From Escherichia coli (GTDB lineage: Bacteria; Pseudomonadota; Gammaproteobacteria; Enterobacterales; Enterobacteriaceae): 64,000 nucleotides of DNA. Of this stretch, positions 25,526 to 57,187 are shown piece after piece; position 1 is the first letter of the stretch, and each line of letters starts with the position of its first letter. Both the position numbers and the translations under genes were made by a program. The notes under the pieces were generated by a model. The model made no database searches, was not told the DNA's origin, and saw only the letters and a list, made by a program, of their open reading frames with translations. The DNA is taken from NCBI RefSeq assembly GCF_022846255.1, contig NZ_AP025682.1; one strand, given 5' to 3'.

Positions 25526-26089
25526 TTAGATTTTACCAACCAGGTCCAGAGACGGAGCCAGAGTTGCTTCACCTTCTTTCCATTTAGCCGGGCAAACTTC
25601 ACCTGGGTGAGAAGCTACGTACTGTGCTGCTTTGATTTTACGCAGCAGGTCTGACGCGTCACGGCCAATGCCTTCAGCGGTAACTTCGATTGCCTGGATG
25701 ATACCCTGCGGGTCAACAACGAAGGTCGCACGGTCAGCCAGACCTTCATCTTCACGCATGTTGTCGAAGTTACGGGTCAGGGCGCCAGTCGGGTCGCCGA
25801 TCATCGCATATTTGATTTTAGCGATGGTTTCAGAGCTGCTGTGCCATGCTTTGTGGGTGAAGTGAGTATCGGTAGATACTGCGTATACGTCTACGCCCAG
25901 TTTCTGCAATTCTTCGTAATGGTCAGCAACGTCACCCAGTTCGGTCGGGCATACGAAAGTAAAGTCAGCCGGGTAGAAGAAGAAGACGCTCCAGCGGCCT
26001 TCGGTATCTTTTTCGGTGATTTCGATGAATTCGCCGTTTTTGAATGCCTGGTTTTTAAAAGGTTTAATTTTGGTGTTAATCAAGGACAT
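25526..26089 (-). CDS. ahpC: Alkyl hydroperoxide reductase subunit C (2-Cys peroxiredoxin)
   Basis: 187 aa; peroxidatic Cys motif FTFVCPTE; resolving Cys near C-terminus. Confidence 0.95.
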
Positions 26090-26460
26090 CTATACTTCCT
26101 CCGTGTTTTCGATGAGATGTAAGGTAACCAATTTTTGCCGATTCGGCTAATGCGTTTCCATTATCAAATCGATAAGTTTTACCTTACAACCTTCGTAAGA
26201 CAACTTTGTGAACTTTGCACCGCCAGCGGCGATAAAAAGTAAAATGGCCCCCTTTCCAGGTGACCGTGTAATCTGAACTACCCTTTGGTATCTTCAGCGC
26301 CTGCCTGCAGGCTGAGGTGTTGCCCTTACAAATGCAACAACGACATGGATTACAACACCCTCATAAACAAAGGGCAATCACCTGATCTAAGCTCTTACCT
26401 ATGACAGTGATAGGTTATGCCTTTTACTCGACTTTTGCACTGACTGAAAAGGACAAATTA

Positions 26461-30286: not shown

Positions 30287-31447
30287 CTACAGCTGGCGCA
30301 GGCGTTCTGCTGCTGCCAGCAACGTCGATTCCTTTTTGGCAAAACAGAGACGAATCAGTTTATGTGGGAAGGGATCGGCGCAAAACACCGACAGCGGAAT
30401 CGCCGCTACGCCGTGCTCCCGCGTCAGCCACTGGCAAAACTCAACATCATCCATCGTAGATACGGCACTGTAATCCACCAGCAAAAAGTATGTACCTTCG
30501 CACGGTAAAATCTCCAGCCGACTTTCATTTAAGGCATTCACCAGAATATCGCGCTTCTGGCGATAAAAGTCCGGTAACGCAAGATAATGCTCAGGTTCTG
30601 CACGTAGCATATCGGCAAGCGCCAACTGTGCCGGGGTATTCACCGAAAAGGTCAGATACTGATGCACTTTGCGGATCTCGGCGCTGATGGGCGCAGGTGC
30701 AACGCAATACCCCACTTTCCAGCCGGTCATATGATAGGTCTTGCCAAACGATGACACCGCCACCGCTCGCTCACACAATTGCGGATGCGCCAGCACGCTG
30801 GCATGGCCCTGTTGTGAAAAATTGATGTGCTCGTAGACTTCATCGCTAATGACAAAAATCTCGTGCCCGGCAATCGCCTGCCACAGAGCGGAGAAATCAG
30901 CCTGCTGCCAGACAGTTGCACTGGGGTTATGCGGGGTGTTGAGGATCACCAGTCGGGTGCGCTCGCTTAACAATGCGGCAAATTCCTGCCAGTCCACGCG
31001 AAAATGCGGTGGTTGCAGTGCCATACGCTTCACTATTCCCCCAGAAAGCGCGATGGCGGGGGCGTAACTGTCATAGCTGGGATCAAAGCAGATCACTTCA
31101 TCACCATTGCGCACCAATGCGGTAATCGCTGCATATAACGCTTCCGTCGCCCCTGCCGTTACGGTGATATCACTATCGGCATCCGGTTGATAGCCATACA
31201 GACGTTCCGTTTTCTGAGCAATCGCCTCGCGCAAGGCCTGCACGCCAGTCATAGGCGCGTATTGGTTTGCCCCCTGGGCAACGTGGTACGCCAGCCGCTC
31301 TTGTAAATAGCGCGGACCATCAAAATCAGGAAAGCCTTGCGAAAGGTTAATGGCCTGGTGTTGCTGCGCCAGCGCGCTCATCTGGGTGAAAATAGTGGTG
31401 CCAAGTTGTGGAAGTTTGCTTTGTGGAATCAGAGGGTTATTTGTCAT
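30287..31447 (-). CDS. ybdL: PLP-dependent methionine aminotransferase
   Basis: 386 aa; class I/II aminotransferase features with PLP-lysine region (SFGKTYHMTGWKVGY). Confidence 0.9.
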   Translation of the reverse strand: MTNNPLIPQSKLPQLGTTIFTQMSALAQQHQAINLSQGFPDFDGPRYLQERLAYHVAQGANQYAPMTGVQALREAIAQKTERLYGYQPDADSDITVTAGATEALYAAITALVRNGDEVICFDPSYDSYAPAIALSGGIVKRMALQPPHFRVDWQEFAALLSERTRLVILNTPHNPSATVWQQADFSALWQAIAGHEIFVISDEVYEHINFSQQGHASVLAHPQLCERAVAVSSFGKTYHMTGWKVGYCVAPAPISAEIRKVHQYLTFSVNTPAQLALADMLRAEPEHYLALPDFYRQKRDILVNALNESRLEILPCEGTYFLLVDYSAVSTMDDVEFCQWLTREHGVAAIPLSVFCADPFPHKLIRLCFAKKESTLLAAAERLRQL

Positions 31448-31555: not shown

Positions 31556-32644
31556 ATGCCTCACAATCCTATCCGCGTGGTCGTCGGCCCGGCTAACTAC
31601 TTTTCACATCCCGGAAGTTTCAATCACCTGCACGATTTTTTCACTGATGAACAACTTTCTCGCGCAGTGTGGATCTACGGCGAACGCGCCATTGCTGCGG
31701 CACAAACCAAACTGCCGCCTGCGTTTGAACTGCCAGGGGTAAAGCATATTTTGTTTCGTGGTCATTGCAGCGAAAGCGATGTACAACAACTGGCGGCTGA
31801 GTCCGGTGACGATCGCAGCGTGGTGATTGGCGTCGGCGGCGGCGCACTGCTCGACACCGCAAAAGCCCTCGCCCGCCGTCTCGGTCTGCCGTTTGTTGCC
31901 GTTCCGACGATCGCCGCCACCTGCGCCGCCTGGACACCGCTCTCCGTCTGGTATAACGATGCCGGACAGGCGCTGCATTATGAGATTTTCGACGACGCCA
32001 ATTTTATGGTGCTGCTGGAGCCAGAGATTATCCTCAATGCGCCGCAAGAATATCTGCTGGCGGGGATCGGTGACACGCTGGCGAAATGGTATGAAGCGGT
32101 GGTGCTGGCTCCGCAACCAGAAACGTTGCCACTAACCGTGCGGCTGGGAATCAATAATGCGCAGGCCATTCGCGACGTCTTGTTAAACAGTAGCGAACAG
32201 GCGCTTGCCGATCAGCAAAATCAGCAATTAACGCAATCATTTTGCGATGTGGTGGATGCCATTATTGCTGGTGGTGGAATGGTCGGTGGTCTGGGCGATC
32301 GTTTTACGCGTGTGGCGGCGGCTCATGCCGTGCATAACGGTCTGACCGTGCTGCCGCAAACCGAGAAGTTTCTCCACGGCACCAAAGTCGCCTACGGCAT
32401 TCTGGTGCAAAGCGCCTTGCTGGGTCAGGATGATGTGCTGGCGCAATTAACTGGAGCGTATCAGCGTTTTCATCTGCCGACTACGCTGGCGGAGCTGGAA
32501 GTGGATATCAATAATCAGGCGGAGATCGACAAAGTGATTGCCCACACCTTGCGCCCGGTGGAGTCCATTCATTACCTGCCAGTCACGCTGACACCAGATA
32601 CGTTGCGTGCAGCGTTCGAAAAAGTGGAATCGTTTAAAGCCTGA
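31556..32644 (+). CDS. ybdH: Iron-containing alcohol dehydrogenase family protein (glycerol dehydrogenase-like; hydroxycarboxylate dehydrogenase)
   Basis: 362 aa; GGGxxxD NAD-binding motif (GVGGGALLDTAK); metal-binding His residues. Confidence 0.88.
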   Translation: MPHNPIRVVVGPANYFSHPGSFNHLHDFFTDEQLSRAVWIYGERAIAAAQTKLPPAFELPGVKHILFRGHCSESDVQQLAAESGDDRSVVIGVGGGALLDTAKALARRLGLPFVAVPTIAATCAAWTPLSVWYNDAGQALHYEIFDDANFMVLLEPEIILNAPQEYLLAGIGDTLAKWYEAVVLAPQPETLPLTVRLGINNAQAIRDVLLNSSEQALADQQNQQLTQSFCDVVDAIIAGGGMVGGLGDRFTRVAAAHAVHNGLTVLPQTEKFLHGTKVAYGILVQSALLGQDDVLAQLTGAYQRFHLPTTLAELEVDINNQAEIDKVIAHTLRPVESIHYLPVTLTPDTLRAAFEKVESFKA

Positions 32645-32653
32645 CGTGCAAAT

Positions 32654-32851
32654 TTAGCAGCAGCGCGCGCCGCCTTTTCCACCGTAGCGCGCGTCCTGCC
32701 GCTCACGGAAAAACTCTTCGTAGGTCATCGGCGTTTGATCGGGATGATTAACCCGCATATGTTCGACATAGTTGTCGTAATCAGGCATACCAATCATCAG
32801 CTTCGCCGCCTGACCTAAATATTTTCCGGCTTTTGCCAGTGAATCAAACAT
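32654..32851 (-). CDS. ybdD: Small protein YbdD (DUF466), co-transcribed with cstA
   Basis: 65 aa from [14 protein letters not shown]; lies downstream of cstA on the same strand. Confidence 0.85.
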
Positions 32852-32884
32852 CAATACCTCCGGTAAACAGGTTGCTGAGAGAGT

Positions 32885-32919
32885 GCCGGATGCGGCGTGA
32901 GCGCTTTATCCAGCCTACA
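32885..32919. repeat. REP (repetitive extragenic palindrome) element
   Basis: gccggatgcggcgtgagcgctttatccagcctaca matches the canonical E. coli REP sequence family. Confidence 0.8.
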
Positions 32920-32944
32920 AATGCTATCAACGCGCTCGGTCAGT

Positions 32945-32989
32945 CCCCTCGCCCCACCGGGGAGAGGGTTAGGGTGAGGGGGAACCCTC
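32945..32989. repeat. GC-rich boxC-like intergenic repeat
   Basis: cccctcgccccaccggggagagggttagggtgagggggaaccctc resembles boxC-type enterobacterial intergenic repeats. Confidence 0.55.
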
Positions 32990-33032
32990 GGCACTATGCC
33001 AACATTCGCCAACATCCCCCCTCACTCTGACT

Positions 33033-35138
33033 TTAGTGTGCGCCTTTTGCCTGCGCCACGATCTCCTCGACATTTTCCGGCATTGGCTCATACGGCGTTT
33101 CTTTCGCCGTTGGCTTCGGATCTTTCAATGCCGCCAGTGCCGTCTTAATCGAGAACAGCGCCAGAACCACCACGACCACCATAAAGAAGATGGTTAACCC
33201 GGCATCCAGACGGTTGTTGAACACCAGTTGCGCCAGCTGTGACTCAGTATACTGCGACGGAATATTGCCGCTGTCGATCATTGCCTGGAACTTATTAGCA
33301 ATGGCCAGGAAGCCGACTTTCGCATCCGGGCTAAACGCTTTCTGCCAGCCTGCAGTCAGGGTACAAATCAGCAGCCAGGCCGTTGGTACCAGCGCCACCC
33401 AGGCGTAACGTTGACGTTTCATTTTGAACAGCACCACGGCACAGAGCATCAGCGCCATCCCTGCCAGCATCTGGTTGGCAATACCAAACAGCGGCCACAA
33501 GGTATTAATACCGCCCAGCGGATCGACCACGCCCTGATGCAGGAAGTAGCCCCACGCCAGCACACACAGCGCCGTTGCCAGCAGGTTCGCTGGCAGTGAA
33601 TCGGTCCGCTTCAGGCCAGGAGAAACCACGCCCAGCAGATCCTGCAACATAAAGCGTGCAGCACGCGTACCTGCATCCACCGCTGTCAGAATAAACAGTG
33701 CTTCAAACAGAATAGCGAAGTGATACCAGAACGCCACATCCATCATGCCGCCCAGCGCGCCGTGCAGAATGTAGGCCATCCCCACCGCCAGCGTCGGCGC
33801 ACCGCCCGCACGGGAAATGATCGACTGTTCACCCACTTCGCTGGCAATCTGGTTGAGCGTATCTGGTGTAATGCTAAAGCCCCAGCTACTCACCACCTGC
33901 GCGGCAGAAGCGACCACATCCGCCGTCCCTGCCGGAGCCAGCACCGCCATTGGGCTGTTCATGGCAAAATACACGCCCGGATCGATGATACAGGCAGAAA
34001 CCAGCGCCATAATCGCCACGAAGGATTCCATCAACATCCCACCGTAGCCGATAAAGCACGCCTGCCCTTCGTTCGCCAGCATCTTCGGCGTGGTGCCGGA
34101 AGAGATCAGCGCATGGAAGCCAGACACCGCACCACAGGCGATGGTGATAAACAGGAACGGGAACAGGTTACCGGTCCATACCGGTCCAGTGCCATCGACA
34201 AATTTGGTCAGCGCAGGCATGGTCAGCGTCGGGCGCATAATCAAAATGCCTACCGCCAGACCGACGATAGTCCCGATTTTCAGGAAGGTAGAGAGGTAGT
34301 CACGCGGGGCCAGCAGCAACCACACCGGCAGCACCGCCGCCACAAAACCGTAGCCCACCAGCATCCAGGTCAGCTGCACGCCGGTAAAGTCAAAGTACGG
34401 TGCCCAGGTCGGACTTTCTGCCACCCAGCCGCCAGAAATAATGGCGAAAATCAGGAATACCAGACCGATGACCGACACTTCACCAATACGCCCCGGACGC
34501 AGATAACGCAGGTAGATCCCCATGAACAGCGCCAGCGGAATGGTGAAAGCAACGGTATACGTTCCCCACGGGCTATGAGTCAGGGCTTTCACCACGATCA
34601 TCGCCAGCACGGCAAGGATAATGACCATGATCATAAAGCAGGCCACCAGCGCAATCACCCCGGCGGTTGGCCCCATCTCTTCTTTGACCAGCTCACCCAG
34701 CGAGCGACCGTCACGACGCGTAGAAACAAACAGCACCATGAAATCCTGCACCGCACCGGCGAGAACCACCCCGGCGAGCAGCCAGATCATCCCCGGCAGG
34801 TAGCCCATTTGCGCCGCCAGCACCGGCCCCACCAGCGGCCCTGCTCCGGCAATGGCCGCAAAATGGTGACCGAACAGCACTTTCTTGTCCGTCGGCACAT
34901 AGTCCAGCCCGTCGTTATGGCGCACCGCTGGCGTCATACGCGTCGGGTCAACCGCCAGCACATTTTTGGCGATATACAGACCATAAAAACGGTAAGCGAT
35001 CAGATAGATACAGACCGACGCCACCACAATCCACAGCGCGTTGATCTGTTCCCCACGATTTAAAGCAATGTATCCCAGAGCAAATGCTCCCATTACAGAG
35101 AGCACTGTCCAGACGAGGTATTTCCCTGATTTGTTCAT
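33033..35138 (-). CDS. cstA: Carbon starvation protein A (peptide/pyruvate transporter)
   Basis: 701 aa polytopic membrane protein; recognised CstA. Confidence 0.93.
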   Translation of the reverse strand: MNKSGKYLVWTVLSVMGAFALGYIALNRGEQINALWIVVASVCIYLIAYRFYGLYIAKNVLAVDPTRMTPAVRHNDGLDYVPTDKKVLFGHHFAAIAGAGPLVGPVLAAQMGYLPGMIWLLAGVVLAGAVQDFMVLFVSTRRDGRSLGELVKEEMGPTAGVIALVACFMIMVIILAVLAMIVVKALTHSPWGTYTVAFTIPLALFMGIYLRYLRPGRIGEVSVIGLVFLIFAIISGGWVAESPTWAPYFDFTGVQLTWMLVGYGFVAAVLPVWLLLAPRDYLSTFLKIGTIVGLAVGILIMRPTLTMPALTKFVDGTGPVWTGNLFPFLFITIACGAVSGFHALISSGTTPKMLANEGQACFIGYGGMLMESFVAIMALVSACIIDPGVYFAMNSPMAVLAPAGTADVVASAAQVVSSWGFSITPDTLNQIASEVGEQSIISRAGGAPTLAVGMAYILHGALGGMMDVAFWYHFAILFEALFILTAVDAGTRAARFMLQDLLGVVSPGLKRTDSLPANLLATALCVLAWGYFLHQGVVDPLGGINTLWPLFGIANQMLAGMALMLCAVVLFKMKRQRYAWVALVPTAWLLICTLTAGWQKAFSPDAKVGFLAIANKFQAMIDSGNIPSQYTESQLAQLVFNNRLDAGLTIFFMVVVVVLALFSIKTALAALKDPKPTAKETPYEPMPENVEEIVAQAKGAH

Positions 35139-40147: not shown

Positions 40148-40162
40148 ATCATCCTCCACAAA

Positions 40163-40195
40163 ATGATAAAGGCTTTAATAATGATTATCATTTAT
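40163..40195. promoter_or_regulatory. Fur box(es) in the divergent entC / fepB promoter region
   Basis: aatgataaaggctttaataatgattatcatttat contains close matches to GATAATGATAATCATTATC. Confidence 0.8.
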
Positions 40196-40335
40196 ATTTT
40201 CGGTCGCTAACCTAAAAGCAAACGCGCACTATGTCAACTCTTGAGGTAACGCAATCTGCAACTCGGGGTTGCATCTGGTTGTGGTTACAATGAAAATGAG
40301 AAGCATTAACTTCATTAATAACAGGAAGCTGATTT

Positions 40336-52351: not shown

Positions 52352-54592
52352 ATGAACAAGAAGATTCATTCCCTGGCCTTGTTGGTCAATCTGGGGATTT
52401 ATGGGGTAGCACAGGCACAAGAGCCGACCGATACTCCTGTTTCACATGACGATACTATTGTTGTTACCGCCGCCGAGCAGAACTTGCAGGCGCCCGGCGT
52501 TTCGACCATCACCGCAGATGAAATCCGCAAAAACCCGGTTGCCCGCGATGTATCGGAGATTATCCGTACCATGCCTGGCGTTAACCTGACCGGTAACTCC
52601 ACCAGTGGTCAGCGTGGTAATAACCGACAGATTGATATTCGCGGCATGGGTCCGGAAAACACGCTGATTTTGATTGACGGCAAGCCGGTCAGCAGCCGTA
52701 ACTCTGTGCGTCAGGGCTGGCGTGGCGAGCGCGATACCCGTGGTGATACCTCCTGGGTGCCGCCTGAAATGATTGAACGTATTGAAGTTCTACGTGGTCC
52801 GGCAGCTGCGCGTTATGGCAACGGCGCGGCGGGCGGCGTGGTTAACATCATTACCAAAAAAGGCAGCGGTGAGTGGCACGGCTCCTGGGATGCTTATTTC
52901 AATGCGCCAGAACATAAAGAGGAAGGTGCCACCAAACGCACCAACTTCAGCCTGACCGGTCCGCTGGGCGACGAATTCAGCTTCCGCTTGTATGGCAACC
53001 TCGACAAAACCCAGGCTGACGCGTGGGATATCAACCAGGGCCATCAGTCCGCGCGTGCCGGAACGTATGCCACGACGTTACCAGCCGGGCGCGAAGGGGT
53101 GATCAACAAAGATATTAATGGCGTGGTGCGCTGGGACTTCGCGCCTCTGCAGTCACTCGAACTGGAAGCGGGCTACAGCCGCCAGGGTAACCTGTATGCG
53201 GGTGATACGCAGAACACCAACTCTGACGCTTACACTCGATCGAAATATGGCGATGAAACCAACCGCCTGTATCGCCAGAACTACTCGCTGACCTGGAACG
53301 GTGGCTGGGATAACGGCGTGACCACCAGCAACTGGGTGCAGTACGAACACACCCGTAACTCGCGTATTCCGGAAGGTCTGGCGGGCGGTACCGAAGGGAA
53401 ATTTAACGAAAAAGCGACGCAGGATTTTGTAGATATCGATCTTGATGACGTGATGCTGCACAGCGAAGTTAACCTGCCGATTGATTTCCTCGTAAACCAA
53501 ACGCTGACGCTGGGTACAGAGTGGAATCAGCAACGGATGAAGGACTTAAGTTCCAACACCCAGGCGCTGACCGGAACGAATACCGGCGGTGCTATTGATG
53601 GTGTGAGTGCCACCGACCGTAGCCCGTATTCAAAAGCAGAAATTTTCTCGCTATTTGCCGAAAACAATATGGAGCTGACTGACAGCACCATCGTAACGCC
53701 GGGGCTGCGTTTCGATCATCACAGTATTGTCGGCAATAACTGGAGTCCGGCTCTAAACATATCGCAAGGTTTAGGCGATGACTTCACGCTGAAAATGGGC
53801 ATTGCCCGTGCTTATAAAGCGCCGAGTCTGTACCAGACTAACCCAAACTACATTCTCTACAGTAAAGGTCAGGGCTGCTATGCCAGCGCGGGCGGCTGCT
53901 ATCTGCAAGGTAATGATGACCTGAAAGCGGAAACCAGCATCAACAAGGAGATTGGTCTGGAGTTCAAACGCGACGGCTGGCTGGCGGGCGTGACCTGGTT
54001 CCGTAACGATTATCGCAATAAGATTGAAGCGGGCTATGTGGCTGTAGGGCAAAACGCAGTCGGCACCGATCTCTATCAGTGGGATAACGTACCGAAAGCG
54101 GTGGTTGAAGGTCTGGAAGGATCGTTAAACGTACCGGTTAGCGAAACGGTGATGTGGACCAATAACATCACTTATATGCTGAAGAGTGAAAACAAAACCA
54201 CGGGCGACCGTTTGTCGATCATCCCGGAATATACGTTGAACTCAACGCTGAGCTGGCAGGCACGGGAAGATTTGTCGATGCAAACGACCTTCACCTGGTA
54301 CGGCAAGCAGCAGCCGAAGAAGTACAACTACAAAGGTCAGCCAGCGGTTGGACCGGAAACCAAAGAAATCAGTCCGTACAGCATTGTTGGCCTGAGCGCG
54401 ACCTGGGATGTGACCAAGAATGTCAGTCTGACCGGCGGCGTGGACAACCTGTTCGACAAACGTTTGTGGCGTGCGGGTAATGCCCAGACCACGGGCGATC
54501 TGGCAGGAGCCAACTATATCGCAGGTGCCGGGGCGTATACCTATAACGAGCCGGGACGTACGTGGTATATGAGCATTAATACTCACTTCTGA
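52352..54592 (+). CDS. fepA: TonB-dependent ferric enterobactin outer membrane receptor FepA
   Basis: 746 aa from MNKKIHSLALLVNLGIYGVAQA; TonB box DTIVVTA; C-terminal aromatic residue. Confidence 0.95.
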   Translation: MNKKIHSLALLVNLGIYGVAQAQEPTDTPVSHDDTIVVTAAEQNLQAPGVSTITADEIRKNPVARDVSEIIRTMPGVNLTGNSTSGQRGNNRQIDIRGMGPENTLILIDGKPVSSRNSVRQGWRGERDTRGDTSWVPPEMIERIEVLRGPAAARYGNGAAGGVVNIITKKGSGEWHGSWDAYFNAPEHKEEGATKRTNFSLTGPLGDEFSFRLYGNLDKTQADAWDINQGHQSARAGTYATTLPAGREGVINKDINGVVRWDFAPLQSLELEAGYSRQGNLYAGDTQNTNSDAYTRSKYGDETNRLYRQNYSLTWNGGWDNGVTTSNWVQYEHTRNSRIPEGLAGGTEGKFNEKATQDFVDIDLDDVMLHSEVNLPIDFLVNQTLTLGTEWNQQRMKDLSSNTQALTGTNTGGAIDGVSATDRSPYSKAEIFSLFAENNMELTDSTIVTPGLRFDHHSIVGNNWSPALNISQGLGDDFTLKMGIARAYKAPSLYQTNPNYILYSKGQGCYASAGGCYLQGNDDLKAETSINKEIGLEFKRDGWLAGVTWFRNDYRNKIEAGYVAVGQNAVGTDLYQWDNVPKAVVEGLEGSLNVPVSETVMWTNNITYMLKSENKTTGDRLSIIPEYTLNSTLSWQAREDLSMQTTFTWYGKQQPKKYNYKGQPAVGPETKEISPYSIVGLSATWDVTKNVSLTGGVDNLFDKRLWRAGNAQTTGDLAGANYIAGAGAYTYNEPGRTWYMSINTHF

Positions 54593-54631
54593 AGCTAACG
54601 TCAGATTGTTGACAAAGTGCGCGTAGTTCAT

Positions 54632-54666
54632 GCCGGATGCGGCGTGAACGCCTTATCCGGCCTACA
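54632..54666. repeat. REP element (first arm of a BIME) between fepA and entD
   Basis: gccggatgcggcgtgaacgccttatccggcctaca. Confidence 0.85.
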
Positions 54667-54701
54667 AAAAATCTTGCCAATTCAATATATTGCAGGACCA
54701 C

Positions 54702-54731
54702 GTAGGCCTGATAAGCGTAGCGCATCAGGCA
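54702..54731. repeat. Inverted REP element (second arm of the BIME)
   Basis: gtaggcctgataagcgtagcgcatcaggca, a REP in opposite orientation to 54632-54666. Confidence 0.8.
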
Positions 54732-54767
54732 GTTTTGCGTTTGTCATCATTCTCTAATATGGTTGAC

Positions 54768-55427
54768 ATGAAAACTACGCATACCTCCCTCCCCTTTGCA
54801 GGACATACGCTGCATTTTGTTGAGTTTGATCCGGCGAGTTTTCGCGAGCAGGATTTACTCTGGCTGCCGCACTACGCACAACTTCAACACGCTGGACGTA
54901 AACGTAAAACAGAGCATTTAGCCGGGCGGATCGCTGCAGTTTATGCGCTGCGGGAATATGGCTATAAATGTGTGCCCGCAATCGGCGAGCTACGCCAACC
55001 TGTGTGGCCTGCGGAGGTATACGGCAGCATTAGTCACTGTGGGACTACGGCATTAGCCGTGGTTTCCCGTCAACCGATTGGCATTGATATTGAAGAGATT
55101 TTCTCTGCACAAACCGCAAGAGAATTGACAGACAACATTATTACACCAGCAGAACACGAGCGACTCGCAGAATGCGGTTTAACCTTTTCTCTGGCGCTGA
55201 CACTGGCATTTTCCGCCAAAGAGAGCGCATTTAAGGCAAGTGAAATCCAAACTGATGCAGGTTTTCTGGACTATCAAATTGGAAATTGTCAGCATCAACA
55301 GATGAATATAAGCGGGCCGAATGGCGACCATATCGTGCAGTGGTTAGTAAGGGGTAATAATGTTATTACCTTGTGCCTGGTAGATAAACACCCGCACACT
55401 GCAGCATGCGGGTTATCTGGCGGGTAA
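54768..55427 (+). CDS. entD: Phosphopantetheinyl transferase EntD
   Basis: 219 aa from MKTTHTSLPFAGHTL (ORF open from 54690; MVDMKTT alternative start); PPTase motifs (GIDIEE; ESAFKA). Confidence 0.88.
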   Translation: MKTTHTSLPFAGHTLHFVEFDPASFREQDLLWLPHYAQLQHAGRKRKTEHLAGRIAAVYALREYGYKCVPAIGELRQPVWPAEVYGSISHCGTTALAVVSRQPIGIDIEEIFSAQTARELTDNIITPAEHERLAECGLTFSLALTLAFSAKESAFKASEIQTDAGFLDYQIGNCQHQQMNISGPNGDHIVQWLVRGNNVITLCLVDKHPHTAACGLSGG

Positions 55428-55428
55428 T

Positions 55429-56364
55429 TCAAAGCATTTCCCGTGCCTGAGCTGCAATTCCGGCAGCATCAAATCCATGATGCTGACGCAACCACCCACG
55501 ATCCGCCGCTGCGGCATATTCTCCATCCATAATGCCTGCGCGTTTTAATTTGATCCCCGTTCCGGCCTCTGCCAACACTTCCGCGACCAGGCTACCAAGG
55601 CCGCCATTGACGTTATGCTCTTCAACCGTCATCACTGCTTTGCATCCTTTTAACGCTGCCAGCAATGCTTTGGTGTCGCATGGGCGAATCGACGGTACGC
55701 TGACAACTGTAGCCGCGATACCAGACTGCGCTAAAAGTTCTGCGGCATCGACCACTTCATGAACGGTAGAGCCTGTGGCTACCAGCGCCAGTTCGCTGCC
55801 CTCGCGCAAAGTCACCACGGCACCTGGTACAAATCGGTAGTCCTCATCGTGGATTTCCGGCAGGGCTTTACCGTCCATACGGATATAAACAGGCCCCTGA
55901 TAGCGAAGAGCATAATCAATCACCTGACGGCACTCCCGAGGTGAAGACGGGGCAAAGATTTGAATATTGCCGAAACCACGCATAACCGCAATGTCATCAA
56001 TCGCATGATGCGTGCTCGCCAGCGGTCCATAACTCGCCCCGGCATTCAGACCAAACAATTTTACGTTGGTAAAGTTGTAGCAGACATCAACCTTGATTTG
56101 CTCGTTAGCGCGAGCGATAAGAAATGGCGCGGCATTGCAGGTAACAGCCACCTTGCCGCCCAGCGCCAGCCCGGCAGCGGCACCAACCATGCTCTGTTCG
56201 GCAATACCCACATTCACCAGTCGGTCAGGAAATTGCTTAATAAAGGGAGCAATTTTTGCCGTAGACGTTGAATCAGCCACTACAGGCACCAAATCGATCC
56301 CCTCATTTACGGCATCGATAAATGCCTGAACCATCACATTTGCCAGATGTTCACTGTTACGCAT
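55429..56364 (-). CDS. Transketolase C-terminal subunit (pyrimidine-binding and C-terminal domains) of a split transketolase
   Basis: 311 aa with transketolase Pyr/C-domain character; start overlaps the upstream N-subunit gene by 8 nt. Confidence 0.8.
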   Translation of the reverse strand: MRNSEHLANVMVQAFIDAVNEGIDLVPVVADSTSTAKIAPFIKQFPDRLVNVGIAEQSMVGAAAGLALGGKVAVTCNAAPFLIARANEQIKVDVCYNFTNVKLFGLNAGASYGPLASTHHAIDDIAVMRGFGNIQIFAPSSPRECRQVIDYALRYQGPVYIRMDGKALPEIHDEDYRFVPGAVVTLREGSELALVATGSTVHEVVDAAELLAQSGIAATVVSVPSIRPCDTKALLAALKGCKAVMTVEEHNVNGGLGSLVAEVLAEAGTGIKLKRAGIMDGEYAAAADRGWLRQHHGFDAAGIAAQAREML

Positions 56365-57187
56365 CTTTGAGTTCCTTCAGTGCCTGTTCAATTTCATCGC
56401 CTTTCGGCACCCGGTGATGCCATTCCGCACGCCCTTGTATAAAGGAAATGCCTGCCCCTTTAGTGGTGTGGGCAATCACCACATTCGGTTTGCCTTCCTG
56501 TTTAAGCCCTTCAAGCGTCGCGACAACCGAAGCCATATCATTGCCCTGACATTCGGTAACCTGCATACCGAATGCCAGCCATTTCTCTGCCAGAGGATCG
56601 GTGTTCATGATTTCGCGCGTTGGCCCGGCTAATTGCAGATTATTTTTGTCATTAATAATGACCAGGTTATCAAGCCCGTAATGCGCCGCCGCCAGTGCAG
56701 CTTCCCAGTTACTGCCCTCAGCCAGCTCACCATCGCCAGTAATTAAGAAGATACGACGACGGCTTTGACTTTTTTTCGCCGCCAGCGCAAGTCCTACAGC
56801 CACAGGGAAACCATGTCCCAGTGCTCCGGTATTCAGTTCAATACCTGGCGTTTTTTGCCGAACCGGATGGCCGGGTAAGTGTGAATTTGGCTGCTGATAA
56901 GTGGAAAGCCATTCCAGTGGGAAGAATCCTGCTTCCGCCAGCACGCAGTAGTAACATCCAACAGCATGGCCTTTTGACTGAATGTATATATCCCGGTCAT
57001 CGTCGTGAAGGCGATCCGGGGCGACATTGAGAATACGAAAATAGAGTGCGGTCAGTAATTCAACCTGAGAGAGATCGGCCCCAGTGTGTCCACCTGCCGG
57101 GCTATTGGCATTTAAGCGCACGATATGGCAGCGTACCGCCCGCGCTTTACGCTCAAGGGTCTGGATATCATAGCTATAGGGATTCAT
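56357..57187 (-). CDS. Transketolase N-terminal subunit (thiamine diphosphate-binding) of a split transketolase
   Basis: 276 aa; TPP-binding region (GHTGADLS... GDGELAEGSNWEA); SD agagg before ATG. Confidence 0.8.
   Translation of the reverse strand: MNPYSYDIQTLERKARAVRCHIVRLNANSPAGGHTGADLSQVELLTALYFRILNVAPDRLHDDDRDIYIQSKGHAVGCYYCVLAEAGFFPLEWLSTYQQPNSHLPGHPVRQKTPGIELNTGALGHGFPVAVGLALAAKKSQSRRRIFLITGDGELAEGSNWEAALAAAHYGLDNLVIINDKNNLQLAGPTREIMNTDPLAEKWLAFGMQVTECQGNDMASVVATLEGLKQEGKPNVVIAHTTKGAGISFIQGRAEWHHRVPKGDEIEQALKELKDA

Follow-up and report, generated by a model that had tools for sequence, protein, structure and literature searches.

REP sequences, also called PU sequences, are said to go back to Higgins 1982 and to Gilson and Hofnung, and the literature on BoxC, an element that also appears as PIT, TMECO and HPG1, reportedly includes Bergler and Bachellier in the 1990s and Hoyne and Maher in 2000. 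Catalogues of REP, BIME and BoxC repeats in E. coli date back to the 1980s-1990s. REP sequences are reviewed in PMC3333891 and PMC12306157, and in these two sources their stem-loops are described as exonuclease barriers and attenuators, with the further statement that a REP near a stop codon can stall ribosomes (PMC12306157). PMC3333891 also states that the L linkers of BIME-1 elements often carry IHF sites and bind IHF, and its reference list ties gyrase binding to BIME-2, the arrangement of tandem Y-Z2 units with short linkers.

For BoxC, 23 TMECO copies are listed in E. coli K-12, and TMECO loci are described as hypervariable (Holder 2015, PMC4666352). Reportedly, BoxC/PIT elements act neither as promoters nor as terminators and leave RNA polymerase unaffected (PMC4666352). 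Oligonucleotides of type A-mm BoxC form a stable intrastrand purine-motif triplex (or a G4/hairpin switch) in vitro, and in vivo footprinting lent no support to a stable triplex (Holder 2015, PMC4666352). Two of the gene pairs that flank such repeats have been described functionally: CstA and YbdD act jointly in pyruvate uptake (PMC5847655), and fepA-entD is a Fur-regulated operon (PMC10763504).

Here we analyse a 64,000-nt stretch of E. coli DNA, called the window below, in which an initial annotation had reported a canonical REP and a boxC-like element inside a cstA-ybdD operon and a BIME between fepA and entD, and had proposed that these repeats may set differential expression within the two operons. 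By their sequence, the flagged repeats are ordinary copies of three known families, and they had already been catalogued. The K-12 orthologue of the BoxC element is HPG1 no. 19, at 632058, 51 bp past cstA and 108 bp short of ybdD (Kaplan 2016, PMC5100583), and the identical 36-mer is listed for E. coli LF82 (604,718-604,683) and NRG857C (Holder 2015, PMC4666352, Table S8); we confirmed that the LF82 coordinates lie inside the cstA-ybdD spacer. Finding such copies again matters little in itself. Their best explanation is, with high probability, that they are known-family repeats with a probable generic RNA stem-loop effect, which at cstA-ybdD are dispensable passengers.

Results

Gene context of the two spacers

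The region is of the E. coli enterobactin/cstA type and lies in the orientation opposite to that of K-12, as read from the open reading frames and the K-12 annotation (Table 1). Both sources agree with the placement of the elements between same-strand genes, cstA and ybdD in one case and fepA and entD in the other. The YbdD protein is 100% identical to K-12 YbdD (tblastn), and cstA is 98.0% identical to an annotated E. coli cstA. Identity to E. coli is mosaic along the window: in any of 5,426 complete genomes it reaches at most 98.0% over cstA and at most 96.8% over the cstA-ybdD spacer region, and the fepA-entD spacer (region 54560-54800) is 100% identical to that of E. coli strain MS20657. 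The DNA may thus come from a lineage that this collection lacks, such as Shigella or a cryptic clade, or from a recombinant. Directly 3' of entD, K-12 carries IS186B, and the window has opposite-strand ORFs at 55429-57187. The RefSeq K-12 annotation has no repeat features at cstA-ybdD or fepA-entD.

The initial annotation took both gene pairs to be co-transcribed. For fepA-entD this agrees with the description as an operon (PMC10763504). For cstA and ybdD we infer it from the common strand, from a spacer with no promoter consensus and from the length of this spacer in other genera, as little as 53 nt, whereas one published table gives each gene as a single-gene unit (PMC5100583).

Two mechanically called ORFs, 32833-33030 (+, 65 codons) and 32851-33015 (-, 54 codons), cross the REP and the BoxC. 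Being composed of repeat sequence, they were rejected as small proteins and should not be annotated as genes, and annotation pipelines should avoid calling mechanical ORFs through these repeats. A small RNA gene was also considered as the identity of the repeats and rejected.

Table 1. Positions in the window of the two spacers, their repeats and the genes around them
Feature	Position	Strand	Basis or remark
ybdL	30287-31447	-	ORF list and K-12 annotation
hcxA	31556-32644	+	ORF list and K-12 annotation
ybdD, 65-aa YbdD/YjiX family protein, downstream of spacer	32654-32851	-	ORF; K-12 annotation
cstA-ybdD spacer	32852-33032		181 nt
ybdD Shine-Dalgarno, GGAGG	32857-32861	-	
Solitary Y-type REP, degenerate, GCCGGATGCGGCGTGAGCGCTTTATCCAGCCTAC	32885-32918	+	31/34 bases as in Y unit
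BoxC/PIT/TMECO element, type A-mm, CCCTCGCCCCACCGGGGAGAGGGTTAGGGTGAGGGG	32946-32981	+	exact consensus fit; G-rich strand is +, the cstA template
Hairpin H1	32966-33031	-	arms 33017-33031 and 32968-32982; inverted repeat of 15 nt, 87% complementary
10-nt tandem duplication in H1 loop, GCCAACATTC / GCCAACATCC	32998-33017		
cstA, pyruvate/proton symporter, upstream of spacer	33033-35138	-	ORF; K-12 annotation
entC	ends 40147	-	ORF list and K-12 annotation
fepB	starts 40336	+	ORF list and K-12 annotation
fepA	ends 54592, stop codon 54590-54592	+	ORF list and K-12 annotation
fepA-entD spacer	54593-54768		176 nt
Y-type REP, left BIME-1 unit	54632-54665	+	exact, 34/34; starts 40 nt past fepA stop
L-type linker, 36 nt, AAAAAATCTTGCCAATTCAATATATTGCAGGACCAC	54666-54701	+	aligns with K-12 mtlA-mtlD BIME linker
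IHF-consensus-like site, ATTCAATATATTG	54680-54692		linker centre; one mismatch to WATCAANNNNTTR
Short Z (Z1) REP, inverted right unit	54702-54730	-	exact, 29/29; ends 38 nt before entD ATG
entD	starts 54769 (ATG)	+	ORF list and K-12 annotation

REP, BoxC and hairpin H1 downstream of cstA

A scan of the 64 kb with the 34-nt Y-type REP consensus returned exactly two sites, the Y units of Table 1, both extragenic and inside the spacers, and the same scan gave 0 matches in 100 shuffled sequences. This consensus is borne out by the exact copy in the window and by K-12 copies. In 4,535 records, a query that contains the Y unit of fepA-entD matches 40 or more sites per E. coli genome. In Rfam the best match is naRNA4, a REP-derived RNA, at the REP of the cstA-ybdD spacer, with 26.5 bits (below the threshold of 59.5); no family reaches its gathering threshold, and the remaining matches (mir-423, antizyme FSE) are noise.

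Alignment to the consensus thus upholds the reading of both sites as Y-type REPs, including the one first placed at 32885-32919, although the epithet canonical does not suit the latter. It departs from the Y unit at three positions, two of them in the stem, and its predicted RNA hairpin is weaker by 7.4 kcal/mol than that of the K-12 version. Both Y copies are predicted to be able to form a stem-loop, the cstA-ybdD copy a weaker one. This REP, which is in the GTAG-first reading on the mRNA, is degenerate and decaying, solitary, and outside any BIME.

The BoxC element fits the published consensus CCCTCNCCC-N3-6-GGGNGAGGG-N3-GGGNGAGGG (PMC4666352) exactly over 32946-32980, followed by a final G, and about 3e-9 chance matches to this consensus are expected in the window from base composition. 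It belongs to type A, with TTA as the second loop, and has one stem mismatch; a single loop base separates it from K-12 TMECO no. 23. Alignment with five K-12 BoxC copies shows similarity from about 32942 to 32983, some 42 nt, with variable flanks, so that the GC-rich boxC-like element first drawn at 32945-32989 is a genuine consensus copy whose right limit was slightly generous. The sole support for the opposite reading, in which the repeats are a chance resemblance or an annotation artefact, comes from the three mismatches in the REP at 32885, and the shuffled controls, the expected number of TMECO matches and the orthologous copies in thousands of genomes make it vanishingly improbable.

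Hairpin H1 begins 2 nt past the cstA stop codon, folds as RNA with -32.3 kcal/mol, and has the third block of BoxC as its 3' arm. It is kept in all Escherichia alleles examined. The 10-nt duplication in its loop, which the window shares with K-12 and PapRG-06-5, is missing in KKo009, PSUO2 and the short alleles. Read along the mRNA, the order is cstA stop, H1, BoxC inner hairpin, a 25-nt unique stretch, REP, ybdD Shine-Dalgarno and ATG, where the cstA mRNA carries the C-rich complement of BoxC and the inner hairpin reads CCCUCUCCCC-GGU-GGGGCGAGGG. The RNA of the whole spacer folds with -77.7 kcal/mol (z = -2.1). A scan of 32500-33300 turned up neither a sigma-70 promoter consensus nor a terminator of the stem-plus-U-tract kind, a result compatible with read-through. 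An intrinsic (Rho-independent) terminator was rejected, as a U-tract follows none of the stems.

The REP pair between fepA and entD

The inverted REP pair reported at 54632-54731 stands: it consists of an exact Y unit on the plus strand and an exact short Z unit on the minus strand, 36 nt apart. For the typing of REP units, 100 kb of K-12 was sampled. In this sample, long Z and Y units occur in tandem arrays with 13-17-nt linkers (yjdN-yjdM, 25802-26384 of the sampled piece), which is the BIME-2 pattern, and a short Z and a Y unit occur together once, with a linker of about 36 nt (mtlA-mtlD). Because in K-12 the short Z goes with the long linker, and the long Z with the tandem short-linker arrays, the short Z of the window was typed as Z1. 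Alignment of the linker with that of the K-12 mtlA-mtlD BIME, the one comparator, leaves ..TGC.AATTCAA.A.ATTG.. in common. By the definitions quoted in PMC3333891, the fepA-entD element is a BIME-1 of structure Y-L-Z1.

The Y unit is predicted to form a hairpin of -21.3 kcal/mol, and the spacer RNA to fold with -68.4 kcal/mol (z = -4.3). A promoter and terminator scan of this spacer found none inside; a single terminator match lies at 54797, within entD. The IHF-consensus-like site at the centre of the linker is suggestive only, since 0.19 such matches are expected by chance per 176-nt spacer. BLAST with the linker alone (E <= 1e-3) matched once per genome and returned no other family copies. 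In the literature collection searched, no paper links fepA and entD with a REP, searching full texts for the linker sequence gave unrelated papers only, and the RepRanger supplement text makes no mention of these genes.

The initial annotation had also suggested binding of gyrase or IHF. The fepA-entD spacer has one pair of units, 36 nt apart, and the cstA-ybdD spacer a lone REP, and a BIME-2/gyrase reading was rejected; neither locus has the BIME-2 architecture, and gyrase binding is therefore not expected. The IHF half of the suggestion fares better, as the fepA-entD BIME-1 linker appears to be of the IHF-binding kind.

Variation of the spacers within E. coli

Alignment of representatives from 5,426 complete E. 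coli genomes reveals at least six structural alleles of the cstA-ybdD spacer, from 112 to 182 nt. The longest form (181/182 nt), in the window and K-12, has H1 with the 10-nt duplication, BoxC and REP; a 172-nt form (KKo009) has the same elements with H1 lacking the duplication. Spacers of 142/143 nt carry BoxC and no REP, either through a clean 38-nt deletion (EC476) or with the REP replaced by ATTAATAG (PSUO2, LF82), and those of 125/127 nt (SCPM, GON1437) carry H1 and REP and no BoxC. Finally, the 112-nt form (ST95-32, B2) has H1 and, at the REP position, an unrelated small hairpin, with neither REP nor BoxC. This last form is found in 1,189 of the 5,426 genomes, including ST95 and the type strain, and a BoxC-bearing form in 4,065 (~75%), 46 of which match the window at every base of a 71-nt stretch. 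The 38-nt deletion in EC476 is flanked by GCA microhomology. The two different REP-less BoxC spacers suggest that the REP was lost independently twice or more, or that an empty-site allele exists, and the spacer alleles look recombinant.

The third G-block of BoxC (32972-32981 in the window) shows G-to-A changes that differ between lineages, GGGTGAGGAGG versus GGGTGAGAGGG (O111:H8 8B; strain 98197; K-12 type), which on alignment read as independent mutations. In these mutants the Watson-Crick hairpin blocks are intact, and the block affected is the one needed for a triplex or G4. The K-12 copy has the third block GGGTGAGAGGG, and its G-to-A change leaves it outside the 23 canonical K-12 TMECOs.

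The fepA-entD BIME is far more uniform in its distribution, with presence at no less than 80% coverage in 5,346 of the 5,426 complete genomes (98.5%). At a further spacer of the region, fepB-entC (40148-40335, 188 nt in the window; 374 nt in K-12), K-12 has a ~186-bp insertion with an inverted BoxC/TMECO pair, nos. 7 and 8 of Holder 2015, and the window has the empty site (...TTATTAATGAAGTTAATGCTTC...) without this pair. The window thereby has its BoxC intact at cstA-ybdD, where K-12 has a mutated copy, and no BoxC at fepB-entC, where K-12 has a pair.

The variability of these loci has a bearing on whether the repeats act on the DNA itself, with IHF at the BIME-1 linker as a topological or nucleoid anchor and a triplex or G-quadruplex in BoxC promoting local rearrangement. 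The cstA-ybdD locus is hypervariable, with its six or more alleles, as TMECO loci are generally, BoxC oligonucleotides form triplexes in vitro (PMC4666352), and the window is without the fepB-entC TMECO pair of K-12; an IHF-consensus-like site sits at the linker centre, and BIME-1 linkers frequently have IHF sites (PMC3333891). However, the variability is explained equally well if selfish or neutral repeats simply come and go, in vivo footprinting lent no support to a stable triplex (PMC4666352), and the IHF match has one mismatch and the chance expectation given above. A role at the DNA level therefore seems improbable to us.

The cstA-ybdD spacer in other species

The outgroup set was obtained by a ybdD-specific pattern scan of species-representative genomes, which gave 30 loci. 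H1 and a Y REP, but no BoxC, are found in E. albertii, E. whittamii and Escherichia sp. MOD1-EC7003, so that the REP is old in the genus and BoxC was added within E. coli. In other genera the spacer measures 53-146 nt and may hold a genus-type REP (Enterobacter, Lelliottia, Leclercia, Trabulsiella), a half, single or inverted-pair TMECO (Enterobacter, Leclercia, Yokenella, Lelliottia) or a unique hairpin (Shimwellia, Pluralibacter, Franconibacter). Two outgroup loci pair a genus-type REP with a TMECO, parallel to the E. coli arrangement. Complete inverted TMECO pairs occur in Enterobacter asburiae, Leclercia sp. and E. hormaechei, where they make perfect, very long hairpins with folding energies from -76 to -90 kcal/mol (z from -8 to -10.6).

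In all 32 loci and alleles a strong hairpin starts 1-15 nt past the cstA stop codon, built from unrelated sequence classes, and in 30 of the 32 z is below -2; some GC-rich hairpin lies just past the stop in 29/29 other taxa or alleles. The same threshold is passed by 14 of 22 same-strand K-12 spacers of 41-229 nt, taken from two arbitrary 50-kb pieces, and the 32 loci are related by descent. Because of this high baseline and this kinship, the conservation of a hairpin is a weak hint that some structure after the cstA stop may matter, and is not evidence that the REP or BoxC do.

These figures have to be weighed for an alternative in which the stem-loops are maintained as a selected regulatory device that sets the CstA:YbdD and FepA:EntD ratios, whether by protection of the upstream mRNA, by partial termination, or, where a hairpin adjoins the stop codon, by holding up ribosomes that terminate there. 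The regular post-stop hairpin is what such a device would leave, and the REP at the orthologous site across Escherichia species, including most E. coli, and the near-universal BIME-1 point the same way; furthermore, the ratio of two proteins that act jointly (PMC5847655) could matter, and REPs are documented to influence both the stability of an mRNA and its translation close to a stop codon (PMC12306157). The high baseline and the kinship of the loci weaken this argument, however, and REP or BoxC is missing or decayed in many healthy lineages, with H1 alone constant; BoxC, moreover, is reported to be without terminator or promoter activity (PMC4666352). We consider such a device rather unlikely.

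Less likely still is a variant in which the position after the cstA stop is a selected "structured spacer", filled repeatedly and independently in different Enterobacteriaceae lineages by whichever palindromic repeat is active there and fixing the CstA:YbdD stoichiometry of the two-component pyruvate importer. With similarly little confidence, its instances would be the H1, Y REP and BoxC of Escherichia, the genus REPs of Enterobacter, Lelliottia and Trabulsiella, the single or paired TMECOs, and the unique hairpins. As a corollary of this variant, BoxC would seem to have joined a hairpin arm of the GGGTGAGGGG type that was already in place, a hint of homology-anchored spread of the repeat.

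Discussion

The population data favour a reading of the REP and BoxC at cstA-ybdD as dispensable passengers at an insertion-tolerant site, and not as a required device. Both are dispensable in nature at this spacer, because 1,189 of 5,426 genomes do without both, others do without one of them, and the REP of the window is decaying. Retention of the REP across Escherichia species and of the BIME in nearly all E. coli genomes could nevertheless reflect selection and not mere tolerance.

On the reading of the repeats as passengers with a generic stem-loop effect, REP and BoxC would have been added downstream of an older H1 adjoining the cstA stop codon. Transcribed within the spacers, the repeats would add stable stem-loops to the RNA, and these may impede 3'-to-5' exonucleases and modestly attenuate read-through, leaving the upstream cistron (cstA or fepA) more abundant than the downstream one (ybdD or entD). 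On the DNA, the BIME-1 linker may bind IHF. The suggestion in the initial annotation that such repeats can stabilise upstream mRNA agrees with the exonuclease-barrier and attenuator roles documented for REPs in PMC12306157 and PMC3333891; that they would tune expression within these operons is the textbook REP model, and plausible. The natural alleles of the cstA-ybdD spacer form a clean series in which REP and BoxC each occur or are missing and BoxC is either whole or mutated; they could be used as a ready-made test of whether such repeats affect the expression of a two-gene transporter unit.

Compared with known systems, the stems downstream of cstA resemble Rho-independent terminators in being GC-rich stem-loops 3' of a stop codon, and differ from them in that no U-tract follows. 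The two Y copies are alike with the Y-type REP/PU family, whose members are imperfect palindromes some 34 nt long with a CTAC foot, extragenic, placed between same-strand genes and present in high copy; the cstA-ybdD copy departs from the family in being solitary and degenerate, with a predicted hairpin of -13.7 instead of -21.1 kcal/mol. With the BIME-2 of K-12 yjdN-yjdM, both loci have in common REP units of the same superfamily, whereas tandem repetition, long Z2 units and short S/s/l/r linkers are found at neither. The fepA-entD element is much closer to BIME-1 (RIB/RIP), as it has an exact Y, an inverted exact short Z and a single 36-nt linker, in a single copy and not in a tandem array; it differs in that its IHF site is predicted from sequence, and of the linker just the core is common to the mtlA-mtlD BIME. 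The BoxC copy of the window is like other members of its family, intergenic, with an exact consensus, of type A and with one stem mismatch; it is intact where the K-12 orthologue has a G-to-A change in the third block, and this third block is common to the older H1 arm.
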